NCBI GenBank assembly: GCA_964655235.1
Contig: CAZZLX010000001.1
Coordinates: forward strand, 1,842 to 65,841
Source of the DNA: an uncultured Rhizobium sp.
GTDB taxonomy: Bacteria; Pseudomonadota; Alphaproteobacteria; SHVZ01
Reading direction: 5' to 3'
DNA length: 64,000 nt
The first letter of the stretch is position 1, and every line of letters starts with the position of its first letter. The notes under the pieces are model-generated. The model was not told where the DNA came from and ran no database searches. It saw nothing but the letters and a program-made list of their open reading frames with translations. The position numbers and the translations under genes are program-made. This document shows positions 2,884 to 60,480 of this stretch, in pieces.

Positions 2884-2915
2884 ATGGTACTTTTCTATCT
2901 CCCGACCGTGCCGAA

Positions 2916-18435: not shown

Positions 18436-18436
18436 A

Positions 18437-38484: not shown

Positions 38485-38508
38485 GCCACAAGAACTACGC
38501 TTCAACTC

Positions 38509-38538
38509 AAAGGGCCCCGAAAGGGGCCCTTTTCTTTT
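38509..38538 (+). terminator. Rho-independent terminator
   Basis: Stem GGGCCCC (38512-38518), loop GAAA, perfect complement GGGGCCC (38523-38529), then T-tract TTTTCTTTT (38530-38538). Confidence 0.85.
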
Positions 38539-38617
38539 GCAGCTCGACGGTCGGAGGTACGCTTCCGTCCGGACTCGCTTCAGGACCTCCGCCATCGATC
38601 CCGACGTTGCACGAGCC

Positions 38618-39994
38618 GTGGAGCTGGATGTCGCCGGCCGGCGCACCGAGGCGACGGCCCTGGCGCGCGCTGTCCTGCAGCGCACGCCCTCCTCGGTCGA
38701 GGCGCGGTGCGTGCTGGCGACGATCGCCCTTCGTGATGGGTCTGCTTCCACCGCCGGAGCCCTGCTACGGCAGGCCTGCGTGCTCGAGCCCAGCTATCCT
38801 CAGGTTCACTACTACCTCGCCCTGTGGCGTCCGGATCGTGGCGACATCCCGGGCATGGAGTCGTCCCTTGCCCGGGCCCGCCAACTGCTCGGCACGGGAT
38901 CCAGAATGGCGACGAGTCTCGAGGCCTTCGCCGGCGCGTGGAGATGGCTCTCCGACCGCAGGGTCCCGTCTATGCCCCTGCGGTCAACTTCCCGTTCATC
39001 CGAGCCCGGAAGCACGCGCTGGCTGTTCGTCTGGCGCGATCTGGAGGAGTTCCTTGACCACTTCGACCAGGCACAGGTCGGAGGTCGGAGCACGTTCCGC
39101 CTGCCCAAGCGGGACCAGGGACCATCCTCGGACCCATCGGAGCAGCTGCTACGCTATTGCAAGGACGTCGATCCGGAGATCGTGGTCTTCCTGCCGGGAA
39201 CGGCCCAGCATCGAAATCCGACGCTCGGCGTCTTTCGGCAGCTGCGTGCCCAAGGGATCCCGACCGTCCTGTTCGTCGCCGATCTACGAAAGGCGCTTTG
39301 GCAAGGAGTCGCAAATCGCGTTGCCGATGCCTTCGACCTCGTGCTGCCGATCGACGGCTGCAGTCTCGAGAGCCTGCCCTCGCTCCGTCACCTGGGCCGA
39401 CGCTTCTTTCGCGGCTGGTCGCCGATATCCCCAGGAAACGTTCCGCCTTTCGCCACCCGGCGGTCTTGCGTGAACCTTGTAGGCAGCCTGTGGGGCGAGC
39501 GCGTTCACGGCGTCCAGGCGCTGAGAAATGCCGGGATCGAGGTGATCACCCGTCCGTCCGCGATCGAGGCGCATCGGGATCCGAATTTGCCGGCCCACAA
39601 GACTCTTTCGACGGCGACCTATCTAGACTCGCTCAGGCAGGCTCAGCTGACGGTCAACTACAGCGCCTGCAGCACGGGAGACGGGCACCAGCTCAAAGGC
39701 CGGGTCCTGGAAGCGGCGGCGTGCGGCTCGATGCTTCTCGAGTCGGCCAACGACGTCACCTGCGACTTCTTCGAAGAGGGACGCGAATACGTCTCTTTCG
39801 ACGGAGCGGCCGATCTCGTCGAGAAGGTCCGGTATTTTCTCGCTCATCCCGAACGCGCCGCGGAAATCGCCGCGAACGCGACATCGCGGTTCCTCAGGGA
39901 CTACACCGCAACGACGTTCTGGACTCGCGTCCTCGCCGCCGCTCGCGAGAACAATGCCTCGATCGAGTCCGCTAGGCGACGTCTCCACCCCTGA
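38618..39994 (+). CDS. TPR-repeat protein with C-terminal CgeB-like (GT1-type) glycosyltransferase domain
   Basis: GTG at 38618 (VELDVAGRR...) is preferred. The ORF-track start at 38450 runs through the terminator. The C-terminus GRVLEAAACGSMLLESANDVTCDFFEEGREYVSFDGAADLVEKVRYFLAHPERAAEIAANATSRF matches the CgeB/Glyco_trans_1_2 C-terminal pattern. Confidence 0.7.
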   Translation: MELDVAGRRTEATALARAVLQRTPSSVEARCVLATIALRDGSASTAGALLRQACVLEPSYPQVHYYLALWRPDRGDIPGMESSLARARQLLGTGSRMATSLEAFAGAWRWLSDRRVPSMPLRSTSRSSEPGSTRWLFVWRDLEEFLDHFDQAQVGGRSTFRLPKRDQGPSSDPSEQLLRYCKDVDPEIVVFLPGTAQHRNPTLGVFRQLRAQGIPTVLFVADLRKALWQGVANRVADAFDLVLPIDGCSLESLPSLRHLGRRFFRGWSPISPGNVPPFATRRSCVNLVGSLWGERVHGVQALRNAGIEVITRPSAIEAHRDPNLPAHKTLSTATYLDSLRQAQLTVNYSACSTGDGHQLKGRVLEAAACGSMLLESANDVTCDFFEEGREYVSFDGAADLVEKVRYFLAHPERAAEIAANATSRFLRDYTATTFWTRVLAAARENNASIESARRRLHP

Positions 39995-42023
39995 CGCTCC
40001 GGAGTGCCTTGACGAGGTTGTGGGCGTAGAGATTTGCGTTGCAGAGGGGTGAGTTGATCACCTGGCTGCGGAGGTTGGCTCGGAGGGTTGCGAGTGCGGG
40101 GAGATCTCGCGCCAGCGCATCGGCCCTCTCGACGTAGCCCTGGTGGTCGGGCGCCACCAGATGATCGAGCCCCACCAGCGGCAGGAAGCCCGCTCCCATC
40201 CGCGCGATGAAGCGCTCGCCCGCCAGCGTCACCACCGGAACCCCCATCCACAGAGCCTGGAACGTCGCGTTGCACCCGACGAACGGAAACGGATCCAAGG
40301 CAATGTCGACCTGATGGTAGATCGACAGATGCGCCGTCCCCTCCGTCGAGCCGGCCTCGAACTCGATCCGGTCCCCGCTCACCCCAAACCCTGAGAACGA
40401 CGACCGGATATGGGCGCGAAGCGTCGGGTCTTCGTAGAAATGCAGATACTTGAGAAGAAGCCGAGATCCCGGAACGGCCCGCATCACTGATGCCCAGGTC
40501 GACAACGTCGAGGGCGACAGCTTCGCCGGGTTGTTGAAGCACCCGAACGTCACCCGGCCCGAGCTCAGAGCCGGAAGCGCCGATACCAGAGGCTCCTCCG
40601 GCGGGCGGCGGAACACGTACCAGCACGGCAGCCGCAACAGCCTCTCGCTGAACTTCTCCTCCGTCCCCAATGGCGTCGTCGCCTCGTCGCCTACCCAGTA
40701 GTCCATCTCCGCCAGACCCGTCGTCGTCAAATCGAACAGAGACGCCTGGACCGGCGCCGCCCTCGACGCAAACACACGAAGACGACCACCAGCCGTGTGA
40801 CCCGCAACCGATACCAGAACGTCGATCCCGTCCTCGCGAACCGCAGAAACAACCTCCTCGTCGCTCAGATCCGCAATCACACGCCACCCATCCGCCAGAG
40901 ACGCAAATCGAGCACTCATCTCGTCCGGACGAGCGACATTCGCATACAGAAAAACCTCGACACCCCCCCGATCCATCCCCTCAACAATCGAAAGCAACGT
41001 CTCCCCTACCGCATGCCGGCGGAGATCGGCCGAGACAATGCCCAGCCGCAGCTGCCGTCCATCAGGCAAGTCCGGCCGCCTCGGCATCGGCAATCGGAGG
41101 GCCTGATCGTGACGACCGGCGACAGCCCTGAACAGCTCCTCGGCCGTGGTCGAGTCCCGGTACAGCAGCGACATCACGCGATTGCTGGCGAAAGCCGCAT
41201 TCGACGGCGCGAGCATGACAGCGCGACCACCCCACGCAGCGGCCTCATCCGGGAAAGCCAGCGTTGACGACGCCACGCCGAGGTTGCTCACGGCGTCCGC
41301 ATCGGTCGGCTCCAGCACGACGGCCCGCCGCAAAGCAGTCCGTGCGTCCCCGAGCCGTCCTGCACGATGGAAGGCGCGGCCAAGATTGTTCTGGAGGCCG
41401 GCGAGAACCGGATCGAGTTCCGCCGCCTTCTCGAGTGTGGCGATGCGGTCCCGGCCACGATCCGAAAGCTCGTATGCGTTCGCCAAATTGACCAGGATCC
41501 GCGCCGATCCGCGATCCATCTGCGACGCCCGGACCAGCGCAGCGATCGAGGCACTGATCGCCTTCTCGCCGAGGAGAAGGATTCCGAGGTTCGATTGCAC
41601 CGCGGCGCTTCCGGGCTCTAGGCAGGCATGCCTTTGCGCGAAGCGCAGAAGATCCCTGACCGAGAGCACGGTCCGGCACCGCCCGATCAGGTTGCCGTAG
41701 GCCGAGGCGAAAAGAGGATCGCAGGCGATGGCACGGCGATAGATCCCGACGGCCGAAGAAAGATCGGCCGGTGCGACAGCTTCGCCCATGTTGCCGTGAA
41801 ACAACGCAACGGCAGGATCGACCGCCAGCGCGATGCGCAGGAAGCGCAGAGCGAGGTCGCTTCGTCCGCGCTGAAGCTCCCCCACACCTCGAAAATGCCA
41901 TGCCCAGGAATGCAGGGGGATCTGTGCGAGGATCTGCTCGTAGAGTCCGAGGGCCTCCGGCACCCGACCGGCCTGATGAAGCTGAAGCGCGTTCTGGAAC
42001 TGGGCGGCAGGATCGTTCGGCAT
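39972..42023 (-). CDS. TPR-repeat protein with C-terminal GT41-like domain (paralog A; catalytic domain identical to paralog B)
   Basis: 683 aa. Motifs: LRLGIVSADLRRHAVGE, VTFGCFNNPAKLSP, VDIALDPFPFVGCNATFQALWMGVPVVTLAGERFIARMGAGFL. Residues ~338-674 are encoded by the 1012-bp repeat. Confidence 0.85.
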   Translation of the reverse strand: MPNDPAAQFQNALQLHQAGRVPEALGLYEQILAQIPLHSWAWHFRGVGELQRGRSDLALRFLRIALAVDPAVALFHGNMGEAVAPADLSSAVGIYRRAIACDPLFASAYGNLIGRCRTVLSVRDLLRFAQRHACLEPGSAAVQSNLGILLLGEKAISASIAALVRASQMDRGSARILVNLANAYELSDRGRDRIATLEKAAELDPVLAGLQNNLGRAFHRAGRLGDARTALRRAVVLEPTDADAVSNLGVASSTLAFPDEAAAWGGRAVMLAPSNAAFASNRVMSLLYRDSTTAEELFRAVAGRHDQALRLPMPRRPDLPDGRQLRLGIVSADLRRHAVGETLLSIVEGMDRGGVEVFLYANVARPDEMSARFASLADGWRVIADLSDEEVVSAVREDGIDVLVSVAGHTAGGRLRVFASRAAPVQASLFDLTTTGLAEMDYWVGDEATTPLGTEEKFSERLLRLPCWYVFRRPPEEPLVSALPALSSGRVTFGCFNNPAKLSPSTLSTWASVMRAVPGSRLLLKYLHFYEDPTLRAHIRSSFSGFGVSGDRIEFEAGSTEGTAHLSIYHQVDIALDPFPFVGCNATFQALWMGVPVVTLAGERFIARMGAGFLPLVGLDHLVAPDHQGYVERADALARDLPALATLRANLRSQVINSPLCNANLYAHNLVKALRSVRGGDVA
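40000..41011. repeat. Perfect 1012-bp direct repeat, copy 1 (copy 2 at 42074..43085; period 2074 bp)
   Basis: Six spot-checked stretches (about 340 bp in total, at 40001-40050, 40021-40080, 40081-40140, 40441-40500, 40861-40920 and 40921-41011) match the second copy base for base. The ORF-track translations from both copies are identical (40143..40394 = 42217..42468, 40450..40701 = 42524..42775). The boundaries were found by inspection: 39999 c vs 42073 a, and 41012 c vs 43086 g. Confidence 0.9.
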
Positions 42024-42027
42024 TCGC

Positions 42028-44097
42028 TCAGGCCCGAGCCGGCTGTCCAGGGTGTTCCTGCATCGCGACCCGACGGAGTGCCTTGACGAGGTTGTGGGCG
42101 TAGAGATTTGCGTTGCAGAGGGGTGAGTTGATCACCTGGCTGCGGAGGTTGGCTCGGAGGGTTGCGAGTGCGGGGAGATCTCGCGCCAGCGCATCGGCCC
42201 TCTCGACGTAGCCCTGGTGGTCGGGCGCCACCAGATGATCGAGCCCCACCAGCGGCAGGAAGCCCGCTCCCATCCGCGCGATGAAGCGCTCGCCCGCCAG
42301 CGTCACCACCGGAACCCCCATCCACAGAGCCTGGAACGTCGCGTTGCACCCGACGAACGGAAACGGATCCAAGGCAATGTCGACCTGATGGTAGATCGAC
42401 AGATGCGCCGTCCCCTCCGTCGAGCCGGCCTCGAACTCGATCCGGTCCCCGCTCACCCCAAACCCTGAGAACGACGACCGGATATGGGCGCGAAGCGTCG
42501 GGTCTTCGTAGAAATGCAGATACTTGAGAAGAAGCCGAGATCCCGGAACGGCCCGCATCACTGATGCCCAGGTCGACAACGTCGAGGGCGACAGCTTCGC
42601 CGGGTTGTTGAAGCACCCGAACGTCACCCGGCCCGAGCTCAGAGCCGGAAGCGCCGATACCAGAGGCTCCTCCGGCGGGCGGCGGAACACGTACCAGCAC
42701 GGCAGCCGCAACAGCCTCTCGCTGAACTTCTCCTCCGTCCCCAATGGCGTCGTCGCCTCGTCGCCTACCCAGTAGTCCATCTCCGCCAGACCCGTCGTCG
42801 TCAAATCGAACAGAGACGCCTGGACCGGCGCCGCCCTCGACGCAAACACACGAAGACGACCACCAGCCGTGTGACCCGCAACCGATACCAGAACGTCGAT
42901 CCCGTCCTCGCGAACCGCAGAAACAACCTCCTCGTCGCTCAGATCCGCAATCACACGCCACCCATCCGCCAGAGACGCAAATCGAGCACTCATCTCGTCC
43001 GGACGAGCGACATTCGCATACAGAAAAACCTCGACACCCCCCCGATCCATCCCCTCAACAATCGAAAGCAACGTCTCCCCTACCGGGTGGCTGCAGAGGT
43101 CCGCCGATACAAACCCAATTCTGAATTTCCCCCTGGATCCGTTCGCAAGCGTACGCGACGGAGCGGGCGCATTCCGGATCATGCTGCCACTCGATGTCGC
43201 ACGCATCAGCTCGGATGCGCTCGTCGAGTCCGCATAGAGTAGCGTCATCACGTAGTTGCCGCGAAAAGCCGCATTCGTCGGCGCGACCGCCAAGGCCCGC
43301 CGAACGAACGCTTTGGCGCCCTCCGCGTCGCCCAAGGCGAGAGCGATATTTCCCAGATTGTTGAGGGCTTCCGCCTCGTCGGAATGCAGCGCCAAGGCGC
43401 GCCTGAGAGAGCGCCGCCCTTCGCCGATGCGTCCCGCGCGCTGATAGGCGCGACCCAGATTGTTGTGACTGCTCGCCGCGTGCGGGCTGAGCCGAGCCGC
43501 CTTCTCGAGAACCACTGTCGCCCGATCGGCCTCGCCTCCGACCACCAGGGCGCGGCCGAGATTGGCGAGGATCTCGGCCGCATCCGGCGAGAGCGATACC
43601 CCCCGCATCAACGCCTTCTCCCCGTGAGGAAGGTCACCCCGATCGCAAAGCAGCAATCCGAGATTTGACTGGGCGGCCGGATTGTTAGGCTCGACGGCGA
43701 CGTGACGGCGCGAAAATCGGAGCAGCGTTCCGGCACTCTCGATCGCGCGGCATCGAGCGACCAGGTTCCCGTATGCCGACCCGAACATGACGTCGCAGCT
43801 GATCGCACGACGATAGAGGCGTGCCGCAGATCCAAGGTCCGCGCCCGCCAGGGCTTCGCCCAGGTTACCGTGGAACACCGCGACGGACGGGTCGATCGCA
43901 AGCGCAACGTGAAGGCACCGAAGCGCGTCGCTCGACCGCCCTCGCTGCAGCTCGATCAGGCCCAGATAGTGCCATGCCCAGGAATGGAGCGGGACGCCCG
44001 ACAGCACGTCGCGGTAGCGCCTCTCGGCCTCGTCAACCCGGCCGACCTGATGCAGACCTAGGCCTTCCTGGAATATCCCGTTCCAATCACCTGCCAT
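42028..44097 (-). CDS. TPR-repeat protein with C-terminal GT41-like domain (paralog B)
   Basis: 689 aa. The N-terminal TPR region is distinct. From ...VGETLLSIVEG onward it is identical to paralog A until the final ~10 residues. Confidence 0.85.
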   Translation of the reverse strand: MAGDWNGIFQEGLGLHQVGRVDEAERRYRDVLSGVPLHSWAWHYLGLIELQRGRSSDALRCLHVALAIDPSVAVFHGNLGEALAGADLGSAARLYRRAISCDVMFGSAYGNLVARCRAIESAGTLLRFSRRHVAVEPNNPAAQSNLGLLLCDRGDLPHGEKALMRGVSLSPDAAEILANLGRALVVGGEADRATVVLEKAARLSPHAASSHNNLGRAYQRAGRIGEGRRSLRRALALHSDEAEALNNLGNIALALGDAEGAKAFVRRALAVAPTNAAFRGNYVMTLLYADSTSASELMRATSSGSMIRNAPAPSRTLANGSRGKFRIGFVSADLCSHPVGETLLSIVEGMDRGGVEVFLYANVARPDEMSARFASLADGWRVIADLSDEEVVSAVREDGIDVLVSVAGHTAGGRLRVFASRAAPVQASLFDLTTTGLAEMDYWVGDEATTPLGTEEKFSERLLRLPCWYVFRRPPEEPLVSALPALSSGRVTFGCFNNPAKLSPSTLSTWASVMRAVPGSRLLLKYLHFYEDPTLRAHIRSSFSGFGVSGDRIEFEAGSTEGTAHLSIYHQVDIALDPFPFVGCNATFQALWMGVPVVTLAGERFIARMGAGFLPLVGLDHLVAPDHQGYVERADALARDLPALATLRANLRSQVINSPLCNANLYAHNLVKALRRVAMQEHPGQPARA
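42074..43085. repeat. Perfect 1012-bp direct repeat, copy 2
   Basis: See copy 1. Confidence 0.9.
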
Positions 44098-44398: not shown

Positions 44399-44776
44399 TC
44401 AGCGGCAGCGCTTGAAGGTAGGCGTCGGGGCTCCGTCGCGCATCCCGTCCTTTATGACCGAGCCGTTCGGGCCCTGTTGCCAGGGTCGAATGGTCGCACC
44501 CACGATCTTCCAGACGGTGGGGCCGCCACCATCGTTGAAGTCCAGCGTGAAGAACTCCGGCGACTCCTCCGTCAAGGTCGGGGAGCCGAAGTCGGCCGCC
44601 ACGCCCTTGTTGACCGTATAGGCGATCAGCTTGCCGCTCGGGTTCAGGCGATAGCCGATCTTGAAGTCTCCTCCGCAGTCCCCCGCCCACTCGCCGACCA
44701 CGAGAGGCTGCCGCGACTGAGCGCCCGCGCCGGAGGCGACAAGCAAAAGCGCGATCACGAAAAGGGCCCTCAGCAT
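44399..44776 (-). CDS. Small secreted protein of unknown function (signal peptide)
   Basis: Internal ATG at 44776 gives MLRALFVIALLLVASGAGA|QS. 125 aa with two Cys. The ORF-track start at 44848 adds an Arg-rich extension. Confidence 0.6.
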   Translation of the reverse strand: MLRALFVIALLLVASGAGAQSRQPLVVGEWAGDCGGDFKIGYRLNPSGKLIAYTVNKGVAADFGSPTLTEESPEFFTLDFNDGGGPTVWKIVGATIRPWQQGPNGSVIKDGMRDGAPTPTFKRCR

Positions 44777-44967
44777 GAAGTCGCTCCTCGCATTGTCGGC
44801 TCCGCGCCGACGGATCCAGCGCCACAGATCTATCATCAACCGGTGCAAGAGATCGAGCCGCTTGGCCCTGCAACCGAGCGTTACGAGGCAATGGCCGAGC
44901 CCTGAAGGGGTGGTCGCCCCGACCTCGATCTCCTATAGATTGGTCGTTCAACACCACCGGACACTCG

Positions 44968-46596
44968 ATGAAGACGAAAAGGAACCGGGATCTGCAGCGG
45001 GCGCGCAACGCGCCCGTTGCCGGCAATCTTTTTGCCGAGGCCAGCCGCGCGTACACCGCTGGCGATCTCGACGCCGCCGAGCGTCACGCGAGCCAGCTCC
45101 TACGCGCCCAGCCAAGAAATGCCGATGCACTCAATCTCATCGGCGTCATCGCCGCCGCCCGAAGCGACATGCCTCGCGCGGCGAAATTTCTCGGCCAGGC
45201 GGCCGAGCTCATGCCTCGATCCGCCTCGATCCGAGGCAATCTCGCCCTCGCGCTGAAGATGCTCGGCCGCTGGCATGACGCGATCGCGCAGGCACGCGAG
45301 GGAGTCCGGCTCGAGCCCGGCAACTCGATCATCTGGAACACGCTTTGCGCCGCGCAATACGAGGTCGGGGACCATGCCGGCGCCTTGGTCAGCGGCCGCA
45401 CGGCGATCGCCCTAGGCCCGACCATGGCCGAGGCCTGGAACAACTTCGGTAACGTTCTCGTCGAGTTCGGCCACGCGCGGACGGAAAGCGCCTTTCGCAT
45501 GGCCCTCGCGCTCAATCCCTTCCTGGTTCAGGCATGGTCGGGGCTCGGCAGCGCCGCGCTCAGGCAGAAGCGCCACGAAGCGGCTCAAGCGGCCTTCGAG
45601 CGAGCCCTCACCATCCGCTGGCCCAGCCGATGGTGGCCTGGAAATCGCCCGGCCTCCGTCCTCCCGCCGCCGCAGAGTCTCACCAACACCGTCAAGCTGC
45701 GCCACGACATCGAGCAGTTCGAAGCAGGCCGCCGGTCGGGGATCTATGGAGCGGAGTTCGATCCGATCATTTCGGCCTATCGCCGTGCACTCGATCGATT
45801 TGTCGGGCGATATGGCGCGTCGGCGAATGGCGCCCTTCATCCCGAGGACGTCGCTGCCATCGGCGATGTCTACGGACGCATCGTCAACTGGACCCCTCCG
45901 GCCAAGATCGCCGGTGGAGCCGTGGCGGCCGATTGGGATCGCGCTGACGTCGCACGACGCTACGCGGTGCCCCCCGGTATCTGCTGGGTCGACGGCTTCC
46001 TGACGGCGGAGGCCCTCTCCTCTCTCCGCAAGTTCTGCCTCGACTCGACCATCTGGAACGACATCAGTCACAATTACCAGGCGGCGCCGGTCGCTCGCGG
46101 ATATCTCGGGGCCTACGCCGCCGACGGCTTCTTCGCCCCGCTGCTCTTCCAGATCGCCGAGGAGCTGGCCGCGGCGCTTCCCGGGATCTTCGGTGGACAC
46201 CCTCTTCGCCAGATCTGGGCGTACAAGTACGAGAAGAAGCTCGAGGGCATCGGAATCCATGGCGACGACGCCGCGGTCAACGTCAACTTCTGGATCACGC
46301 CGGACAGCGCCAACCTGGACCCGGACTCCGGTGGCCTGATCGTCTATCCGGTGGAGGCGCCGGCTGATTGGGACTTCGCCGCGATCAATACCGAGCCGGA
46401 GACGATGCATCGCTTCGTCGAGGCGGCCGGGGAGCCTCCGGTCAATGTTCCGTACCGGCAGAACCGCGCCGTCATCTTCAACTCCGACCTCTTCCATGCG
46501 ACGGCGCCTCTCCGATTCCGTCCTGGATACGAAAACCGCCGCATCAACGTGACGATGCTGTTCGGCCAGCGACAGCCACGATCACGTTCAGCATGA
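44968..46596 (+). CDS. TPR-repeat protein with C-terminal 2OG-Fe(II) oxygenase-like (cupin) domain; candidate protein hydroxylase
   Basis: 542 aa. N-terminal TPRs. The C-terminus has IGIHGDDAAVNVNFWITPD (HxD) and a distal VIFNSDLFHAT (His). The architecture resembles Asp/Asn beta-hydroxylase. Confidence 0.7.
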   Translation: MKTKRNRDLQRARNAPVAGNLFAEASRAYTAGDLDAAERHASQLLRAQPRNADALNLIGVIAAARSDMPRAAKFLGQAAELMPRSASIRGNLALALKMLGRWHDAIAQAREGVRLEPGNSIIWNTLCAAQYEVGDHAGALVSGRTAIALGPTMAEAWNNFGNVLVEFGHARTESAFRMALALNPFLVQAWSGLGSAALRQKRHEAAQAAFERALTIRWPSRWWPGNRPASVLPPPQSLTNTVKLRHDIEQFEAGRRSGIYGAEFDPIISAYRRALDRFVGRYGASANGALHPEDVAAIGDVYGRIVNWTPPAKIAGGAVAADWDRADVARRYAVPPGICWVDGFLTAEALSSLRKFCLDSTIWNDISHNYQAAPVARGYLGAYAADGFFAPLLFQIAEELAAALPGIFGGHPLRQIWAYKYEKKLEGIGIHGDDAAVNVNFWITPDSANLDPDSGGLIVYPVEAPADWDFAAINTEPETMHRFVEAAGEPPVNVPYRQNRAVIFNSDLFHATAPLRFRPGYENRRINVTMLFGQRQPRSRSA

Positions 46597-48152
46597 CGGA
46601 AGTGCCGCCGTTGGCACACCCGTCGACCGACATCGCGGAAGCGCGCCGCACGCTTCTAGCCGAAGCCACCCGATCGACGGCCGCTTCTCGCCGGGCCTAT
46701 CGAGCCCTCCTCGCCCTCGTGCCGGGGGACGCCCACACGCTCATGTCCCTCGGCACACTCGCGGCCCAGGCGAGAGATGCCGAGGACCTGGCACTTCTTC
46801 GGCGCGTGCCTCACCTCGATCCGGAAGGCGCCGACGGGTATGCCAACTATGGAAGCGCTCTTCTCTCTAGGCGGGATCCCGCTTCGGCGCAGCCGGCGCT
46901 CCGCCGGGCTCTCGCCTTGCAGCCCGACCATGTCACCGCCTGGTATAACGAAGGCCTTTCCCGTCAGCAGGCCGGAGAGATCCGGGATGCGTCGACGGCC
47001 TACCGGCGCGCCGTCGCCGCCAGTCCATGCCACATCGAGGCGCGCCGAAATCTCGCCGTCTGCCTTCATTCCCTGAAGAAGATCGACGAGGCCCTGCATC
47101 TCCTGCAGGACCTCGTGAGGGAAACCCCCGATCGGGCCGACATACGCGAGAACATCGCCTTCATCCTCCTCGACATCGGACGGACCGACGACGCCTTCGA
47201 GGAGCTGGCGCGCGCCGCCGAGACCCGATACGGGCTCGGCTCGGCAGCTTCCGGCTCAGATCCGGCGCTCAGCCAGGTCACACCCGTCCGGCTCAAGCAC
47301 GATCGCGAGCAGCTCGATCATCTGCTCGCCCAAGGTCGTGGCGACGCTGCGCTCCGGCAGCTTCGCGACACCTACGCGGGCTTGCTGGAACAGGTGCCTC
47401 ACACCGCGCACGCGGTCCAGGCGCTCGCGCTCTCGCGGGAACAGTCCCGTGTCCTGGCGCCCTGGTACGGCCGTCGCTACGCGAGACGAGAGGCTTTGGC
47501 GGTTCCCGGCAGCGCGCTCAATCCCGCGCTCGATCTTCACGACGTCGAACGGCGCTATCTCGACTCCAGACCGGAAATCACCGTCATCGACGGTCTGCTT
47601 TCCGACGCATCGCTGCTCGCGCTCCGCCGGTTCTGCCTGGAGAACAGCTTCTGGATCCGAAGCTACGGCGGCGGCTATCTCGGATCATTCATGGAGGACG
47701 GTTTCGTCTGCCCGCTGATCGCGCAGATTGCCGGTGAGCTCAGGGCCGGCATGAGCCGGGTCGTCGGGCCGCATCCATTGAAGAAGGTCTGGGGCTTCAA
47801 GTACGACAGCCGCCTTTCTGGCATCAATCTGCATGCGGACTTCGCCGCTGTGAACGTCAATTTCTGGATCATGCCCGACAGTGCAAATCGCGATCCGTCC
47901 TCGGGTGGCCTGATCATCTGGGACAAGCCGGCGCCACTGTCCTGGGGGTTCGAGGAGTACAACCGCTCGCCTGAGCTTGCCCGGCGCTATCTCGATGGCG
48001 AAGGGGCGAAGGCCATCACCGTGCCCTATCGCGCCAACCGGGCGGTCATCTTCAACTCGAACCTGTTCCACGAGACCGATCGCATCGACTTCAAGGACGG
48101 CTACGAGAACCGGCGCGTCAACATCACGCTTCTCTACGGATCGCGATCATGA
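46593..48152 (+). CDS. TPR-repeat protein with C-terminal 2OG-Fe(II) oxygenase-like domain (paralog)
   Basis: ATG at 46593 overlaps the upstream stop (ATGA). Motifs: INLHADFAAVNVNFWIMPD, VIFNSNLFHET. ~45% identical to the preceding gene over the C-terminal domain. Confidence 0.7.
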   Translation: MTEVPPLAHPSTDIAEARRTLLAEATRSTAASRRAYRALLALVPGDAHTLMSLGTLAAQARDAEDLALLRRVPHLDPEGADGYANYGSALLSRRDPASAQPALRRALALQPDHVTAWYNEGLSRQQAGEIRDASTAYRRAVAASPCHIEARRNLAVCLHSLKKIDEALHLLQDLVRETPDRADIRENIAFILLDIGRTDDAFEELARAAETRYGLGSAASGSDPALSQVTPVRLKHDREQLDHLLAQGRGDAALRQLRDTYAGLLEQVPHTAHAVQALALSREQSRVLAPWYGRRYARREALAVPGSALNPALDLHDVERRYLDSRPEITVIDGLLSDASLLALRRFCLENSFWIRSYGGGYLGSFMEDGFVCPLIAQIAGELRAGMSRVVGPHPLKKVWGFKYDSRLSGINLHADFAAVNVNFWIMPDSANRDPSSGGLIIWDKPAPLSWGFEEYNRSPELARRYLDGEGAKAITVPYRANRAVIFNSNLFHETDRIDFKDGYENRRVNITLLYGSRS

Positions 48153-49853
48153 CGGCATCGCGTCGCGAACTGCATTCTCGATGCTGGCGGCCATGGCGCG
48201 GCCGTCGCATAGAGGCGATGCGCGCATGCGGTCGCGCAGGCTGCCTCTGAGGGCGGCCCGGCCCACATCGTCGGCGGCGAGTGCGACGGCCTTCGCGACG
48301 TAATCGTCCTCGTCGGTCGCGGACAGCTCTGGAAGTCCCAGAACACTGACGAACGCGTGGCTGTAGCGTCCGAGGACGCGGTCCCCCGCCAACGTAATCA
48401 CCGGCACGCCCATCCACATCGCTTCCAGCGTGGTGATCACGCCCCCATACGGCGTAGGGTCGAGCGCGATATCGATATCGGCATAGCTCGCCATGTGCGC
48501 GCCGATATCGGGCGTCGGCAGCCGGAGCTCGACGACGTCGGGCGCGACGCCGGCCCTGGAAAAGAGCGATCTCACCCGCGCCTGGGCTTCCGCCCCGAAG
48601 CCCCCTGCCTTCAGGACCAGGCGCGATCCCGGCACGGCGTTCAGGATCCTTGCCCAGAGACGTATTGTCCGCCCCGAAAGCTTGGCCAGCTGGTTGAAGC
48701 TGCCGAACACCACCCCCCGCGACGGCGCTGCAACCGCGTTCGGCAGATCAGCCAGGGGATCATAGACATAGGCCAGCGGCAGGCGCTCGACCCTCTCGAT
48801 GAACCAATCCTCGGCCCCTTGCGGGATGATCCAGCGATCGCCCAGAACCAGATCCACGGCATCCAGGCCCAGGCTTCCCATCGGCATCCAGTTCACCTGG
48901 AGCCTCCCCGGACGCCTCGCCAGAGCCAGCACCCGCGAGCCCGGCGGATAGCCGAGACTATCGATGACCACATCGATGTCGTCGTCGACGATGGCTGCTG
49001 CGACGGCCTCGTCGGAAAGCCCGGAAACGTCGCGGAACCCGGTCGAGGCGGCACGGAATCTCGCCGTGATCTGATCCTGACGATCCGCCGGAACGTCGGA
49101 ATAGCAGAACGCCTCGATCCGGGCGCGATCATGACCTTCGATCGTCGGCAGCAGTGTAAAGGCAGTGGTGTGGAGAGCGAAACTGCGGCCGGCGAGATAG
49201 CCGATGCGAAGGCGGCGCCCCGTTCCGCTGCGCTTTCGCGATGAGGCTCCGCACGCCGGCAGGGATCGCGCGAAGCGTTCATCGAACTCACGCGCCAACG
49301 CCAGGGACGTTGCCGGTCCAGCCTCTTCCAGCAGGAAGGATGCGCAGATCCGGGCTGCTTGCAGGCGGGGGGTCCGGGGAAGCCGATCCCCCGCGCCGAG
49401 CTTTGCCGCCGCCGGTGCGTCGCCGATCGCCAGGAGTTTGCTGATCGCCAAAAGCGCGATTTCCTCGGATGCCGGCTCCACGGCCAGCGCCCGCCGCGCC
49501 CAGTCGCTCCTTGTTTCGAAAAGGCCGGCGAGCGCCGCCATGCAGGCAGGATCGTCAGGTGCAAGGGCGAGAAGCCGCCGCAGGGGTCGTTGCGTGAGCT
49601 CGCGGCGACCGCCCTGCGTCATCGTCGCCACCAAGGCCCGAAGCGCAGGAATGTCGGCCGGCGCCAGAGCCAAGGTTCGCCTCAGCATCACCTCCGCAAG
49701 CGATGCGTCGGCTTGCCACCAAGTCGCCGCGAGCAGCTGCCAGGACCAGGGGATCGAAGGCTCTCTGACGATGGCGGCCCGTAACGATCGACGCGCCCCG
49801 TCTGTCTTACCTAAAGACAGATGAGCCAGGATGCTCGCTACGATGTCGCTCAT
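48147..49853 (-). CDS. TPR-repeat protein with C-terminal GT41-like domain
   Basis: 568 aa. Motifs: LRIGYLAGRSFALHT, VVFGSFNQLAKLSG, IDIALDPTPYGGVITTLEAMWMGVPVITLAGDRVLGRYSHAFV. Confidence 0.85.
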   Translation of the reverse strand: MSDIVASILAHLSLGKTDGARRSLRAAIVREPSIPWSWQLLAATWWQADASLAEVMLRRTLALAPADIPALRALVATMTQGGRRELTQRPLRRLLALAPDDPACMAALAGLFETRSDWARRALAVEPASEEIALLAISKLLAIGDAPAAAKLGAGDRLPRTPRLQAARICASFLLEEAGPATSLALAREFDERFARSLPACGASSRKRSGTGRRLRIGYLAGRSFALHTTAFTLLPTIEGHDRARIEAFCYSDVPADRQDQITARFRAASTGFRDVSGLSDEAVAAAIVDDDIDVVIDSLGYPPGSRVLALARRPGRLQVNWMPMGSLGLDAVDLVLGDRWIIPQGAEDWFIERVERLPLAYVYDPLADLPNAVAAPSRGVVFGSFNQLAKLSGRTIRLWARILNAVPGSRLVLKAGGFGAEAQARVRSLFSRAGVAPDVVELRLPTPDIGAHMASYADIDIALDPTPYGGVITTLEAMWMGVPVITLAGDRVLGRYSHAFVSVLGLPELSATDEDDYVAKAVALAADDVGRAALRGSLRDRMRASPLCDGRAMAASIENAVRDAMPS

Positions 49854-50109
49854 AAGCGTTCAGACACCAGGGGCCGGAACCGCCCTACGCGCTTCTCTCT
49901 GCTCGAGTCTCTCACCTCATCAAGCGCGGCATTGTTGTTCCGCAATATCCATGGTCGAAGCCGAATTGGGACGGGGTTTAAAGAACCACCTTTCGGCGAG
50001 TTGAGCGATTGAATCCTCTTACCAATAGCGTTTGAATATGCTGACATTTTTTTGCGTCTACGGGAATGCACCTTGACGCTTGTCCCCGCGCCTAAGGGTA
50101 AAACGAAGA

Positions 50110-50721
50110 ATGTTTGCTCTCTCTCCCGGTGCCACTATTTCGACGGATACGCAAGCATCGGGGCCGGTATCTCTAGGAGACGGGGTTGAAATTTTAGCCG
50201 GAGTCCGATTTGGCAAATTCACCCTTGTAAACGCTTGGTCAACAGTCAATGCAGCTGATATCGGGAACTACGTTTCTATCGGTGAATATGTTCGCATTAA
50301 TGTCTTCAATACGCATCCGATCAACTGGCTAAGCACGCATCCTTTTCAAGTCAATGACGCTCACTTCTCAGAGATTCCGGGCTATCGAGACGTTCACCGA
50401 ATTGCTCGAGCCTGGCATCCCGGAACACTTCACATCGGCCACGATGTCTGGATCGGCAGCCACGCCAAGTTACTGAACGCAGTAACCATCGGAACCGGCG
50501 CCGTTGTTGGCGCTGCCGCCGTTGTCGCAGACGACCTTCCGCCGTTCGCTATCGTTGGCGGGGTCCCGGCCAAGGTAATTCGTTACAGGTTCGAACAGCC
50601 AACGATCGCCCGCCTTCTTGCGTCCCGGTGGTGGGATCTTGACCCATGGGACCTAAGTGGTGTGCCGTTCAATGACATCAATCTCGCCCTCGATGAGATA
50701 GAACGAAGGAAAGGCGCATGA
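50110..50721 (+). CDS. Xenobiotic acetyltransferase family (Vat/CatB-type hexapeptide-repeat O-acetyltransferase) in a low-GC island
   Basis: MFALSPG start (ATG 50110). Motifs: HPINWLSTHPF, IGHDVWIGSHAKLL, PPFAIVGGVPAKVIRYRF, SRWWDLDPWDL, matching the VatD/SatA/CatB pattern. GC is about 52% against about 68% for its neighbours; the upstream 250 bp are also AT-rich. Confidence 0.8.
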   Translation: MFALSPGATISTDTQASGPVSLGDGVEILAGVRFGKFTLVNAWSTVNAADIGNYVSIGEYVRINVFNTHPINWLSTHPFQVNDAHFSEIPGYRDVHRIARAWHPGTLHIGHDVWIGSHAKLLNAVTIGTGAVVGAAAVVADDLPPFAIVGGVPAKVIRYRFEQPTIARLLASRWWDLDPWDLSGVPFNDINLALDEIERRKGA

Positions 50722-50766
50722 GGGCACAACCAAGCTTGCCGCGCCTCTGAAGAGCACCACCGAGAT

Positions 50767-52503
50767 TTAGCGCTCTCCGATGATGTTACGAATGGCGGTC
50801 TCGATGGCCGATGCCATCGCGCGACCGTCACCGAGAAGCGATCGTTTCATGCGCGAGCGAAGGTCGCTGCGCAGCGTCTCCCGCCGCAACTCGTCGGCAG
50901 CTAGCGCCTGGGCAGCTGCGACGTAACCATCCTCGTCGGCGACCCCAAGCTCCGGCATCCCGAGGGTATTTACGAACGCATAGCCATAGCGTCCCAGGAT
51001 TCGATCGCCCGCCAAGGTAACCACCGGGACTCCCATCCACATGGCCTCCAGCGACGTAATAACGCCACCATAAGGCGTCGGATCGAGAGCGATGTCGATA
51101 TCGGCATAGCTCGCCAAGTGCTGTTCGAACCCCGCTATCGGAAAGCGAAGCTCGACACGGTCAGCATTGATGCCTTCGCGCTCGAATTGCGCCAAAAGTC
51201 GTTGTGCGGTCTCTTCCGTCGTTAAACCGATCGCCTTGAGCATCAAGCGGGCATGCGGAACCAAACGCAATATTCGCGCCCAAAGACGGATCGTCCGCGT
51301 CGACAGCTTGGCAAGCTGGTTAAAACTCCCGAACACCACGTCGCGCGCTGGCGACGGCGACGGCTCGGGCATCACCACTAGCGGATCGTACATGATGGAG
51401 AGAGGCAACCGCACGACCCGTTCATCAAACCATCGCTCCGCCCCGACGGGAATTGTCCATCGGTCGCCGAAGACCACGTCGACCATACCCGAGCCAACAC
51501 TTCCCATCGACATCCAGTGGACCTGTAGCCGAGCGGGGCGGCGCGCCAGCGCCAGGAGACGAGATCCCTGCGGATAACCCAGGCTATCGATGACGACGTC
51601 TATCTCGTCGTCGGCGATCGCGGCGGCGAATGCCGAGTCGTCGAGGCTTAAGGTGTGCCTGAACCCAGTGGACGCGGCGAAGAAGCGCTCGGTGATCGAA
51701 TCCTGCCGTGACGGCCGCACATCGGAGTAGCAGAAGACTTCGACAGACTCACGATCATGGTGCTCGATTGTCGGCAGCAGCGTAAATGCAGCCGTGTGGA
51801 GCCGAAAGGAGTCACCCGCGACATAGCCGATGCGAAGCTTGCGCCGCCGACGATGAATGTTTGGAGCCCGACCGATACCCAATGGCCGGGCGAAGTGTTC
51901 GTCGAAGGTCCGAACGAGATCGAGAAACTGCGCAGGGCCGGCATCTTCGAGAAGATAGGCCGTACAGATCCGCGCCGCCTGGAGCCGATGATCAGAACCG
52001 TCCGAGACGGAATCAAGAAGCTTGGCCGCCTCTTGCGCCCGGCCCCGGACGAGGAGCTGGGCGTGACGTTCGAGGATCAGATCCACATTGCCTGGATTCA
52101 GCAAAAGGGCCCGCCGGCACCACGACAGGGCCGCGGCGCCGGGCATGTTCGCCAGGTTGGCGAGCGTGGCCGGTTCGTCCGGCTGCACGGCAGCGGCCAT
52201 CCGCAGCCAGCGTAGCGCGGCGATCGGCCTTCCCGACGACTTGAGCGTCGCCGCCAGGGCATTGAGGGCGGACACGTTCAACGGGTCGAGCGCCAGCACC
52301 CGGCGGAGCCAAATCTCGGCGTTTGCCGCGTCGTGCTGCCAGCGCATCGCCGCGAGAAGGTGGAGCGAGGTCCCGAGCCGCGGCTCGTCCGCGGCCAGGC
52401 GGCGCAGGGCCGCTTCCGCCTGGGCGACGCGCCCTTGAGCAAAATCCGCCCACGCCGACGCCAGCTGCGCCTGCGCTGTCTCGCGTCCGGAAGCCGCCGT
52501 CAT
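50767..52503 (-). CDS. TPR-repeat protein with C-terminal GT41-like domain (paralog of 48147..49853)
   Basis: 578 aa, ~75% identical to the 48147..49853 product. Motifs: LRIGYVAGDSFRLHT, VVFGSFNQLAKLST, IDIALDPTPYGGVITSLEAMWMGVPVVTLAGDRILGRYGYAFV. Confidence 0.85.
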   Translation of the reverse strand: MTAASGRETAQAQLASAWADFAQGRVAQAEAALRRLAADEPRLGTSLHLLAAMRWQHDAANAEIWLRRVLALDPLNVSALNALAATLKSSGRPIAALRWLRMAAAVQPDEPATLANLANMPGAAALSWCRRALLLNPGNVDLILERHAQLLVRGRAQEAAKLLDSVSDGSDHRLQAARICTAYLLEDAGPAQFLDLVRTFDEHFARPLGIGRAPNIHRRRRKLRIGYVAGDSFRLHTAAFTLLPTIEHHDRESVEVFCYSDVRPSRQDSITERFFAASTGFRHTLSLDDSAFAAAIADDEIDVVIDSLGYPQGSRLLALARRPARLQVHWMSMGSVGSGMVDVVFGDRWTIPVGAERWFDERVVRLPLSIMYDPLVVMPEPSPSPARDVVFGSFNQLAKLSTRTIRLWARILRLVPHARLMLKAIGLTTEETAQRLLAQFEREGINADRVELRFPIAGFEQHLASYADIDIALDPTPYGGVITSLEAMWMGVPVVTLAGDRILGRYGYAFVNTLGMPELGVADEDGYVAAAQALAADELRRETLRSDLRSRMKRSLLGDGRAMASAIETAIRNIIGER

Positions 52504-52513
52504 GAGCTGGCGT

Positions 52514-53302
52514 TCAGAATCCGGAGAAGCGGGTCAGCGCCACGGTCGAACCATTCGGCAGGATGATCGATCCCGCCGTCGTGCTCGAGAAGGTCGCCGT
52601 GATCTGCCCGGGGGTCGAGGTCCTGGAGGGTGTGGTGTAGGCGCCTGCCAGCGTCGGGCCGCCGCCATACTCCTCGAGCGTCGCCGTCATCGTCGGCCTG
52701 AGGCCGAAAGGACCGAAGACCAGGCTGCCGGTCGCCGTGTACCAGCGGCTGGTGCCGTCGCTTTCGTACATCATCAGCAGCATGAAGAGCTGGTTGCCCT
52801 GCACCTCGATGAAGTAGCCGCGGCCGGGCTCGTTCGCGTTCCACCACCACCCCGTCTCCGGAGCCCCGGATGGCCGCCCGATCGTCGCGCCGCTGCCGAC
52901 GAATTCGTAGCGCTTCAGCGCGAGCGACTGGGCGCCCGGAAGGATGATGGACGCGTCGGTTGCCGACGTCGTCGTGAACGAGAGGGTCCCGACGGCGATC
53001 GTCGAGGTCGGAGCGCGCGCCGCGCCCGACAGCGTCTGGCCGCCCGCATACTCGTACAGGTCGCCCGAGAACACGCTCGACGAGAACAGCGACCCGACCG
53101 ACGAGTACCAGGGCGAGGTTCCCCCTGAGCGATATCCAAGCACCCCGATCAGCGCCCGGGAGCCGCTGACCTCGACGATGTAGCCCCGTCCGGGCTGGCT
53201 GGTGCTCCACCAGACGCCGGTCGAGATCTGCGCCTGTGCCTGGACGGCCCAGAGCCCGAGAAGCAGGCAAGCCAGGAGCTGGAAGACGCGGTGTTTCATC
53301 AT
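52514..53302 (-). CDS. Secreted protein with two tandem ~120-aa repeats of an unknown domain
   Basis: ATG at 53302/53299 gives MMKHRVFQLLACLLLGLWAVQAQA|Q, a signal peptide. Repeats: TGVWWSTSQPGRGYIVEVSG...GTSPWYSSVGSL and ETGWWWNANEPGRGYFIEVQG...GTSRWYTATGSL, joined by T/S-rich linkers. 11 bp upstream of, and co-oriented with, the GT41 gene. Confidence 0.7.
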   Translation of the reverse strand: MMKHRVFQLLACLLLGLWAVQAQAQISTGVWWSTSQPGRGYIVEVSGSRALIGVLGYRSGGTSPWYSSVGSLFSSSVFSGDLYEYAGGQTLSGAARAPTSTIAVGTLSFTTTSATDASIILPGAQSLALKRYEFVGSGATIGRPSGAPETGWWWNANEPGRGYFIEVQGNQLFMLLMMYESDGTSRWYTATGSLVFGPFGLRPTMTATLEEYGGGPTLAGAYTTPSRTSTPGQITATFSSTTAGSIILPNGSTVALTRFSGF

Positions 53303-53401
53303 GGTGCGATGATATCGCATTTCGCGTGTCCGTTCTTTCGGCGCTTGTTCCCGACTGCCGGCCCTTGGCACACTGGAGGTCCCCCACCCATCGGATTCGC
53401 C

Positions 53402-54559
53402 ATGCGACTGACGTCGCGAGGAACACTCTACTCGATCCTCGAAGGACCGGACCGGACCAGCCTAAGGATCGAGGGCGGGGCGGCGCGCGGAACGGCCATC
53501 GTGGCCATCTCCCGGGACGCCGCCCGGGCGGACGACGACGCGCGGTTGCTGCGTGCCCACAGCATCTTCTGGGAATCGCGGGAGATCTATCGCACCCTTC
53601 TGGATCTTGGCTTTCATGTCGATGTGATCGACCTGGGGGCGCAGCTCCCGGCGGGCGGCGGCCCCTATGCTGTATCCCTGACGCTTCATTTCCAGCTTCT
53701 GATGGTCGAGGCCGCGCTCGCCCCGAACGCGATCCGCATCACCTGGCTGACGGGCTCCCATCCTCGCGTCCAGAACGCACGCGAGATCGCGCGCATCCGT
53801 GCGCTCGAGCAACGGCGGGACTGCGTCTATGAACCAAAGCGTCAGCGCGATCACGTCGATGCCGAGCTCGAAGCTATCGACCGTTCCGATCACTGCGTGC
53901 TCGTCGGCAACGCCGTCACGCTCGACACCTATCCCCGACGCTGGCATCCCAAGATGCGGTTGTTCGACGTGTCGGCGGCCAATGTCGGCTACGTCAAATC
54001 CGACGACATGCTCGCGCCGGCGGAGCGGGAGTTCGTCTGGTTCTCGGCCAGCGGAGCCGTCTTGAAGGGCCTCGATCTTCTTCTCGAACTCTTCTCGAGC
54101 CGCGATCTGCCGACGCTGCATGTCGTCGGCTCGCTCGATGGGGAAGAGGATTTTCGCAACATCTATCATGCGGAACTGAGTGGACACCCCCGCATCCGCT
54201 ATCACGGGTTCCTCCACGGCAACGACCCGGCACTCGCCGAGGTCTTCCGGCGCAGCGTCTCGGTTCTGCATCCCAGCGCCTCCGAAGGGATGGCGGGCTC
54301 AGTCGCGCACTGCCTCAAGGTCGGCCTCTATCCCGTGATCAGCCGGTCCTCCGGCATCGACCTCCCGCCCGGCTGCGGCCGGATACTGGACGGAAGCACG
54401 CTCGAGGAGATCGAAATCGCGGTGACCGATGTGCTGGCCATGCCCGATGCAGAGCTTCGTCGACAGATCTCGGCGCTGCAGTCGATGGCGGAGGAACGTT
54501 TCTCACGACAGGCATATACGCGCCGCCTGCGCGAGGTGCTCGGCGAGTTCCTTTCCTGA
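53402..54559 (+). CDS. Glycosyltransferase, GT4-like (group 1)
   Basis: ATG at 53402 (MRLTSRG). The C-terminus HPSASEGMAGSVAHCLKVGLYPVISRSSGID has an E-x7-E-like motif and a GT-B-like layout. Confidence 0.65.
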   Translation: MRLTSRGTLYSILEGPDRTSLRIEGGAARGTAIVAISRDAARADDDARLLRAHSIFWESREIYRTLLDLGFHVDVIDLGAQLPAGGGPYAVSLTLHFQLLMVEAALAPNAIRITWLTGSHPRVQNAREIARIRALEQRRDCVYEPKRQRDHVDAELEAIDRSDHCVLVGNAVTLDTYPRRWHPKMRLFDVSAANVGYVKSDDMLAPAEREFVWFSASGAVLKGLDLLLELFSSRDLPTLHVVGSLDGEEDFRNIYHAELSGHPRIRYHGFLHGNDPALAEVFRRSVSVLHPSASEGMAGSVAHCLKVGLYPVISRSSGIDLPPGCGRILDGSTLEEIEIAVTDVLAMPDAELRRQISALQSMAEERFSRQAYTRRLREVLGEFLS

Positions 54560-60408: not shown

Positions 60409-60480
60409 CGGCCGCCCCTGGCCCCGGGCCGGCAGGATCCCCAAATGACGGCAATGCGCGTATCGGCTAAGAAGGGCCCC

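Follow-up and report, generated by a model that had tools for sequence, protein, structure and literature searches.

This analysis concerns two adjacent open reading frames (ORFs), ORF1 and ORF2, located in a DNA stretch of 64,000 nucleotides from an uncultured Rhizobium sp. (contig CAZZLX010000001.1), which is referred to below as the window. Each encodes an N-terminal arm of tetratricopeptide repeats (TPRs) and a C-terminal domain predicted to be an Fe(II)/2-oxoglutarate (2OG) oxygenase. The features of the pair, numbered from the first letter of the window, were as follows:

44968-46596, plus strand: ORF1, 542 amino acids (aa), TPR arm and predicted Fe(II)/2OG oxygenase domain of the HGD subtype
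44977-45618, plus strand: TPR arm of ORF1, residues 4-217, 12 helices in about 6 TPR hairpins
45679-46578, plus strand: predicted oxygenase domain of ORF1, residues 238-537, an N-terminal helical extension with KLRHDIEQ and then a double-stranded beta-helix core
46258-46266, plus strand: H431-G-D433 of ORF1, proposed to bind Fe(II) as the HxD ligands, invariant in alignments of 57 and of 38 homologs
46495-46497, plus strand: H510 of ORF1, proposed distal Fe(II) ligand, invariant, in strand 508-512 of the model
46540-46554, plus strand: R525...T529 of ORF1, proposed binders of the 2OG C5-carboxylate, invariant, PF13640 positions 90 and 94
46593-46596, plus strand: ATGA overlap of the ORF2 start codon and the ORF1 stop codon, read directly from the sequence
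46593-48152, plus strand: ORF2, 519 aa, paralogous TPR arm and predicted Fe(II)/2OG oxygenase domain of the HAD subtype
46650-47228, plus strand: TPR arm of ORF2, about residues 20-212, with Pfam TPR_16, TPR_2, TPR_19 and TPR_15 stretches within residues 21-212
47277-48149, plus strand: predicted oxygenase domain of ORF2, about residues 229-519
47832-47834, 47838-47840 and 48069-48071, plus strand: H414, D416 and H493 of ORF2, proposed Fe(II) ligands from motif positions
48114-48116 and 48126-48128, plus strand: R508 and T512 of ORF2, proposed 2OG binders from motif positions

ORF1 and ORF2 were confirmed to be translationally coupled paralogs. The maximal ORF of ORF2 begins at TTG 46368, and the true start was placed at ATG 46593. 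An independent gene call on a metagenome contig of 99% identity gave genes of 542 aa and 519 aa with a 4-nt overlap. The two proteins could be aligned end to end with 34% identity (E 2e-75), and their oxygenase domains were 41-42% identical, with every invariant column retained. The ATGA overlap, this identity and the Pfam TPR matches bear out the preliminary description of the locus, in which the genes had been read as coupled paralogs with N-terminal TPRs and a C-terminal HxD...H domain. The gene upstream of ORF1 (44399-44848) is divergent, and the downstream glycosyltransferase (GT) gene of family GT41 (48147-49853) is convergent and overlaps the end of ORF2 by 6 nt. Therefore, the pair forms a separate two-gene unit, which is co-located with GT genes but not co-transcribed with them. 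Furthermore, the tandem was retained in relatives at 59-93% identity, one of them having no GT genes nearby. The ATGA overlap and the retention of the tandem suggest that the two paralogs act jointly.

Many Pfam TPR models were matched above threshold by the N-terminal halves of both proteins. The full-length AlphaFold2 (AF2) model of ORF1 (predicted local distance difference test score, pLDDT, 90.4; predicted template modelling score, pTM, 0.87) consisted of TPR helices, a low-confidence linker and the oxygenase domain, whose first ~100 residues form a helical extension. These matches and the model agree on a TPR-plus-oxygenase architecture, as had been described earlier. No solved chain covered the TPR arm and the oxygenase domain of the full-length model together. 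No signal peptide was visible in the N-terminal sequences of ORF1 and ORF2, which were inspected by eye without a prediction tool. A KL(R/K)HDxEQ motif was located at the start of the helical extension (45694-45717, ORF1 residues 243-250; 47286-47312, ORF2 residues 232-240), and its H, D and Q were invariant family-wide in the alignments; the motif may act as a lid, touch the substrate or bind a second metal.

The fold of the C-terminal domain was approached by structure prediction, which the preliminary description had suggested. The AF2 model of the ORF1 domain, based on a 57-sequence alignment, reached a mean pLDDT of 93.3 and a pTM of 0.90. A Foldseek search with this model gave 418 Protein Data Bank (PDB) matches at E<=1e-3, and 2OG oxygenases dominated the 50 listed. 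The top matches were mostly PhyH-type 2OG enzymes (BesD, HalB, KanJ, EctD; E about 1e-7), and the structural neighbours also included HalB (16.1), SnoK, Tpa1, OGFOD1 and dozens more 2OG oxygenases. According to the model, the domain is an Fe(II)/2OG oxygenase fold with a double-stranded beta-helix core, predicted to be about equally near protein prolyl hydroxylases and small-molecule PhyH-type enzymes. A sulfotransferase or other non-oxygenase fold was ruled out by the model and the fold search. At the sequence level, PF13640 (2OG-FeII_Oxy_3) was matched weakly by 8 of the 11 family members compared, the best at 17.3 bits. The scores of ORF1 and ORF2 were 13.0 and 12.9 bits, and all of these lie under the cutoff of 27, so that profile score does not place the two proteins in PF13640. 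In addition, a sub-threshold trace of DUF6445 (13-19 bits) was found on the domain.

The active-site motifs were GIGIHGDDAAVNVNFW and DLFHATAPL in ORF1, which contain IHGDD and LFHAT, and GINLHADFAAVNVNFW and NLFHETDRI in ORF2, which contain LHADF and LFHET. Residues H431, D433, H510, R524, R525 and T529 of ORF1 were invariant in an alignment of 57 homologs in which columns were 42% identical on average, and Y421 was nearly invariant (at least 90%) in that alignment. Because they are invariant against this background, the HxD, the distal His and the RR..T are not chance motifs. In the domain model, H431 ends a strand, D433 is in the following loop and the distal His is in a later strand; the models put the Arg/Thr pair on the last core strand. 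Of the 83 catalytic-domain segments matched in the 80 homologous loci described below, 81 contained H-x-D and two did not fit the motif pattern used.

These residues were also compared with the human prolyl hydroxylase PHD2. A homolog search from PHD2 for a diverse prolyl 4-hydroxylase (P4H) profile gave, as its best 120 matches, close EGLN1 and EGLN1-like proteins (87-100% identical where aligned), and therefore the shared PF13640 coordinates were used. The sequence of the PHD2 catalytic construct was 100% identical to PDB 2g1m_A and matched PF13640 positions 2-97. The His and Asp of the family lay at positions 15 and 17, compared with about 16 and 18 by extrapolation for H313 and D315 of PHD2, and the Arg and Thr lay at 90 and 94, the same as R383 and T387. 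The Tyr 10 residues before the first His parallels PHD2 Y303. Direct alignment of the family profile with the single PHD2 sequence by hhalign was insignificant (19 columns, PGICWVDGFL to HGICVVDDFL). The alignments and models support an intact HxD...H triad and the presence of the 2OG-binding Arg, with the ligand roles as proposed. The assignment of HxD...H as the Fe(II)/2OG facial triad, first made from the motifs, has thus held in a proper alignment, where the triad is retained and invariant, and in the PF13640 positions of its HxD, which are about those of PHD2. In halogenases, the carboxylate ligand is replaced by Ala or Gly. A halogenase-type Fe/2OG site was ruled out here, because the alignments show no variation at the Asp of HxD, and essentially all loci have it.

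The domain was confirmed to belong to a large and widespread bacterial family without a name in current domain libraries. More than 3,100 proteins were found at E<=1e-3 by word-indexed search. When 1.84 billion representatives at 50% identity were searched exhaustively with a profile, 1,126 clusters reached E<=1e-30 and 2,649 reached E<=1e-3. The named members were labelled only "tetratricopeptide repeat protein", "hypothetical protein" or with TadD/PilF-type COG names. In the best 150 clusters listed, the domain lay at the C-terminal end or close to it, preceded by anything from a few to about 640 residues, and a TPR fusion was present in most family members. In a scan of one genome per species, at least 592 loci were found, spanning Alpha-, Beta- and Gammaproteobacteria, Actinomycetes (Streptomyces, Microbispora), Acidobacteria, Verrucomicrobia, Nitrospira and Gemmatimonas; the nearest was in a metagenome-assembled genome (MAG) of an uncultured alphaproteobacterium (93%). 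H-A-D, as in ORF2, is the commoner subtype, and H-G-D marks an alphaproteobacterial clade including ORF1. A short insertion is carried by ORF1 and its closest relatives. Among cultured bacteria, Denitrobaculum tricleocarpae R148 and Pelagibius have orthologs of the pair. A literature search found no description of this oxygenase family.

The neighbourhoods of 80 homologous loci (numbered with the prefix L) were analysed up to 10 kb on each side, and de novo clustering of the neighbour genes gave no partner conserved family-wide. A sulfotransferase was encoded near the oxygenase gene in 7 of the 80 loci. In five or six alphaproteobacterial loci (L010:1405-2244, L013, L014, L015, L075, L087:4013-4852), the distance between this stand-alone sulfotransferase gene (Sulfotransfer_1, E 8e-35) and the oxygenase gene was 0.1-1.2 kb; the members of the sulfotransferase cluster in L022 and L023 were on the opposite strand. 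In addition, a TPR protein with an SGNH-like motif was found downstream of the oxygenase gene (5 close matches and 2 distant). This protein has 476-480 aa (L090:7724-9154, also L050, L029, L030 and L027; at least three loci labelled Rhodospirillaceae), and its C-terminal domain has no Pfam match and shows SGNH/GDSL-like motifs, IVGDSH ... DTNH.

The same clustering gave a lead on the substrate class. In 13 of the 80 loci, a repeat protein was encoded directly upstream of a TPR-poor oxygenase homolog, and in 9 of these 13 an FkbM methyltransferase gene came next. The loci were from Duganella, Streptomyces, Microbispora, other Actinomycetes and one Lysobacterales MAG, whose oxygenase copy keeps TPRs. 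Most of the cassette oxygenases had 420-460 aa, with catalytic domains 44-48% identical to that of ORF1, and the measured gaps to the repeat-protein gene extended from a 4-nt overlap to about 35 nt. The repeat protein (290-540 aa in the 13 loci, 230-546 aa over all the cassettes, unannotated) has a helical domain at its N-terminus and a helix at its C-terminus, both conserved, with a long series of short repeats between them. These repeat units vary by taxon (GTDTGTDT; GTEMSSPGTEMSPG; TEMSTGHSTG; TEISPGVTEF), and those of the types GTDT, GTEMSPG, TEHSTG and TEISPG have the common core T-[DE]-x-[ST]. S-P-G is frequent in the repeat proteins; the Duganella GTDT repeats have no proline. The cassettes were located as follows:

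L033:7934-11655, L062:8745-11715, L046:8754-11724 and L067:8513-10990: repeat-protein cassettes
L091:5001-7809, L092:1647-5282 and L093:5001-7753: repeat-protein cassettes, continued

A search from the repeat protein gave about 120 clusters, all unannotated apart from one named "hemagglutinin", which is taken to be a misnomer. Furthermore, in all three further genomes picked by the repeat protein alone (Sphingomonas qilianensis, Ralstonia solanacearum and Catellatospora chokoriensis), the next genes were an oxygenase homolog and then an FkbM methyltransferase. The repeat protein is probably a dedicated substrate, and the cassette, which looks like a set of substrate, oxygenase and methyltransferase, is the best evidence for polypeptide substrates in the family. 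No description of the cassette turned up in the literature searches, which did not target it. In Ralstonia solanacearum, a second PF13640-type 2OG oxygenase, an aldo-keto reductase and a tyrosinase follow the cassette (L092:5885-8287), which hints at further oxidative tailoring.

On balance, ORF1 and ORF2 are best read as coupled cytoplasmic Fe(II)/2OG oxygenases, predicted to be protein hydroxylases whose clients are recruited by the TPR arms, and we hold this reading with moderate confidence. In the proposed mechanism, Fe(II) would be held by H431, D433 and H510 in ORF1 and by H414, D416 and H493 in ORF2, and 2OG by the Arg/Thr pair (R525/T529; R508/T512) and the Tyr located 10 residues ahead of the first His. 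O2 would then be activated and a C-H bond of the substrate hydroxylated. The arm of about six TPRs would most likely recruit a protein or peptide client and present an extended segment to the active site. Catalytic activity is expected from these features, and a protein substrate is favoured because the TPR fusion is present in most members, because the TPR arms of FlmG and collagen P4H bind polypeptides, and because of the repeat-protein cassette.

Several results weigh against this assignment. The last ~320 residues matched no Pfam or NCBIfam model at cutoff, and a PDB sequence search with the domain alone gave no match. Since a profile built with full-length homologs was swamped by TPR matches, a TPR-free family profile was used against the PDB, and it gave chance matches only (E>=0.14). 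Most homologs are lone genes among unrelated housekeeping genes, which give no hint of the substrate. Within the window, tblastn found no homolog of the repeat protein and thus no candidate client of that type, and no protein had two or more T-[DE]-x-[ST]-[PTG]-G motifs. Coding tandem repeats were likewise not found in the window. ORF1 and ORF2 presumably find other clients through their TPR arms.

The strongest alternative, although we regard it as unlikely, is a small-molecule or glycan substrate, such as a free amino acid, a nucleotide sugar, a nonulosonic-acid intermediate or a protein-attached sugar, with the TPR arm serving for assembly or localisation only. It keeps this weight because the fold is as near to PhyH-type enzymes as to P4Hs. 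Moreover, an aminotransferase, a carbamoyltransferase and an RmlD-like reductase are encoded in the window along with NeuB, and the first two may belong to the nonulosonic-acid pathway. However, the TPR arm is carried by most members, and such arms bind polypeptides in FlmG and collagen P4H. The family genes were also not linked to sugar or amino-acid pathway genes in the loci examined, and the sole recurrent operon partner was a repeat-rich protein, not a metabolic enzyme.

A second alternative arises from the surroundings of the pair. The 64-kb window is an unusually dense island of TPR-guided enzymes, a glycosylation island, with the following genes:

3961-6258, 22187-24112, 24121-25881, 31233-33182, 33179-34948, 39972-42023, 42028-44097, 48147-49853, 50767-52503 and 61822-63654: ten TPR-GT41 genes, of which those flanking the pair (39972-42023, 42028-44097, 48147-49853 and 50767-52503) are all on the minus strand
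42028-44097, minus strand: TPR-GT41 upstream of the pair, Pfam Glyco_transf_41, E 3.8e-43
48147-49853, minus strand: TPR-GT41 convergent with ORF2, Pfam Glyco_transf_41, E 4.9e-36
26015-27610 and 34945-36696: TPR proteins, C-terminal domain read as GT9-like from sequence motifs, without Pfam match
29323-30807: GT61 gene
38450-39994, 53291-54559 and 59341-60408: GT1-type genes
50080-50721: hexapeptide acyltransferase
2625-3941, 54610-55374 and 60445-61551: nonulosonic-acid genes (PseB-like dehydratase, CMP-sugar cytidylyltransferase and NeuB, respectively)
10888-21051: type II secretion cluster among the GT41 genes, with GspE 10888-12633, GspF 12626-13834, GspG 13831-14295, N-methyl pseudopilins 14683-15784 and secretin 18913-21051

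TPR-fused glycosyltransferases of the island type can be protein glycosyltransferases. The TPR domain of FlmG binds flagellin clients (PMC7591256). A preprint reports that the glycosylation of pilus subunits requires Ogt, a cyanobacterial glycosyltransferase homolog (bioRxiv 10.1101/2021.07.06.449578), which makes the pseudopilins candidate clients of the island enzymes. The two GT9-like TPR proteins were considered as further oxygenases and ruled out, their match being in the TPR part only.

In the model suggested by this setting, the oxygenases would hydroxylate Pro, Lys, Asp or Asn residues of clients, and the neighbouring TPR-GT41 enzymes would then use the hydroxyl or the modified site, in a bacterial parallel to Skp1 P4H1/Gnt1 or to the glycosylation of hydroxylysine in collagen. 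The pair does lie among ten TPR-GT41 genes, two GT9-like, a GT61, GT1-type and nonulosonic-acid genes, and the arrangement is kept in the relatives L007 and L008. The plan of TPR arm and catalytic domain is also common to all of these enzymes and would suit shared clients. On the other hand, a GT41 gene was found within 10 kb in only 2 of the 80 loci, these same L007 and L008, both close relatives (85-93%) that share the island. In another MAG, a 59%-identical tandem pair (L009/L002) had ABC-transporter, amidohydrolase and cytochrome genes as neighbours and no GT nearby. ORF1 and ORF2 form a transcription unit of their own, and adjacency to GT41 carries little information here, because with ten GT41 genes in 64 kb any gene in the window adjoins one. 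In addition, characterised GT41 enzymes use Ser/Thr or Asn acceptors and are not known to use hydroxyproline or hydroxylysine, and the hydroxy-amino-acid glycosyltransferases of the eukaryotic pathways named above belong to other GT families.

With GT41 genes nearby in only two closely related loci, hydroxylation followed by glycosylation has no support from comparative genomics. An oxygenase-GT link would be specific to this lineage, the hydroxylation-then-glycosylation scheme is improbable in our estimate, and an obligate coupling of the oxygenases to the neighbouring GT41 enzymes is equally doubtful. Of the GT link proposed in the preliminary description, the co-location stands, in an island with ten GT41 genes; the step of hydroxylation feeding O-glycosylation is unsupported, given the 2 of 80 loci and the separate transcription unit. 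If true, it would be the first bacterial hydroxylation required for glycosylation known to us, and the evidence does not favour it.

The remaining readings, namely another 2OG-type reaction on proteins or nucleic acids (demethylation, desaturation or halogenation) or a catalytically dead scaffold, are very improbable, as the invariant Asp argues against halogenation and the invariance of all Fe and 2OG ligands in 57 sequences argues against a dead scaffold.

Some further observations were made on the island. The catalytic halves of the GT41 genes 39972-42023 and 42028-44097 form a near-identical DNA repeat of ~1.03 kb (39993-41025 and 42067-43100, offset 2074 nt), and their TPR halves have diverged, with 26-74% identity per 50-nt window. 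A recent gene conversion or duplication is indicated, or else an assembly artefact. The G+C content was 0.58 at 50001-52000, compared with 0.64-0.70 elsewhere; the hexapeptide acyltransferase and the GT41 gene 50767-52503 lie in this dip, which suggests that the segment was acquired separately. Two proteins without Pfam matches look secreted and are possible island cargo: the 149-aa product of the gene divergent from ORF1 (44399-44848, minus strand) and a 285-aa protein (52514-53371, minus strand) with a duplicated domain (WWSTSQPGRGYIVEV and WWNANEPGRGYFIEV).

A wider model, offered only tentatively, would extend the protein-hydroxylase reading. The family could be a large and hitherto unrecognised class of bacterial protein hydroxylases which reach their clients through a TPR arm or act on an operon-encoded repeat protein that is then modified by FkbM. 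The tandem pair might then hydroxylate secreted or surface clients (pilins, flagellins or cargo of the type II secretion system) that are glycosylated by the ten TPR-GT41 enzymes. Bacterial protein hydroxylases include the ribosomal oxygenase YcfD, the EF-Tu prolyl hydroxylase PPHD and a Bacillus P4H, and to our knowledge few are known. The field of bacterial protein hydroxylation was called largely understudied in a review (PMC4295552). An intact oxygenase fused to a client-binding arm is a concrete experimental target, and the cassette, which is present in cultured Streptomyces, Duganella, Ralstonia and Sphingomonas, provides a directly testable enzyme-substrate pair.

Compared with enzymes of the PHD/P4H type (human PHD2/EGLN1, Pseudomonas putida PPHD acting on EF-Tu, Dictyostelium Skp1 P4H/PHD, and the Phytophthora and Chlamydomonas P4Hs; PF13640), the family agrees in its HxD...H triad, in the PF13640 positions of the Arg/Thr on the last core strand, and in having a Tyr that precedes the first His by 10 residues. 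However, the identity was only 14-19%, the scores were 13-17 bits against the Pfam cutoff of 27, and the spacing from His to Arg was 15 residues in the family and 9 in PHD2. Furthermore, the family has the N-terminal helical extension of ~100 residues with KLxHDxEQ and the N-terminal TPR arm, which the PHD/P4H enzymes do not. The substrate-binding domain of collagen P4H is described as a TPR domain in work cited by PMC9676403, and the collagen P4H alpha subunit likewise carries a TPR-type peptide-binding module N-terminal to a P4H-like catalytic domain in one chain (PMC9676403). It differs in having a small peptide-substrate-binding domain, a dimerisation domain and an obligatory protein disulfide isomerase beta subunit, and it works in the endoplasmic reticulum, whereas ORF1 and ORF2 are bacterial, with about six canonical TPRs and no signal peptide seen by eye.

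The preliminary description had likened the pair to the eukaryotic Asp/Asn beta-hydroxylase AspH, which has TPR repeats N-terminal to a 2OG oxygenase domain and acts on a protein substrate. The likeness in layout stands. Nevertheless, the iron site of AspH is described as having two His and no carboxylate (PMC13168262), unlike the HxD of this family with its invariant Asp, and no Asp/Arg-hydroxylase-type Pfam model was among the matches of ORF1 and ORF2. Membership in the AspH family was ruled out, and the resemblance is one of convergent architecture only. The PhyH-type enzymes (BesD, HalA/B/D, KanJ, EctD and SnoK) gave the best Foldseek matches, with E about 1e-7 and target-normalised template modelling scores (TM) of 0.57-0.61. 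They differ in being stand-alone, without a TPR arm, and in using free amino acids, aminoglycosides or polyketides as substrates; the halogenases among them lack the Asp ligand, which is invariant in the ORF1/ORF2 family. In its plan of a client-binding N-terminal TPR arm and a C-terminal catalytic domain, the pair resembles FlmG, whose TPR domain alone binds flagellins (PMC7591256), but FlmG is a glycosyltransferase. A family of TPR-fused classical 2OG dioxygenases was noted in 2010 in cyanophage Syn9 (PMC2938197). The TPR-fused pair is a variant within a well-known superfamily, and it belongs to a family that is itself without a name.

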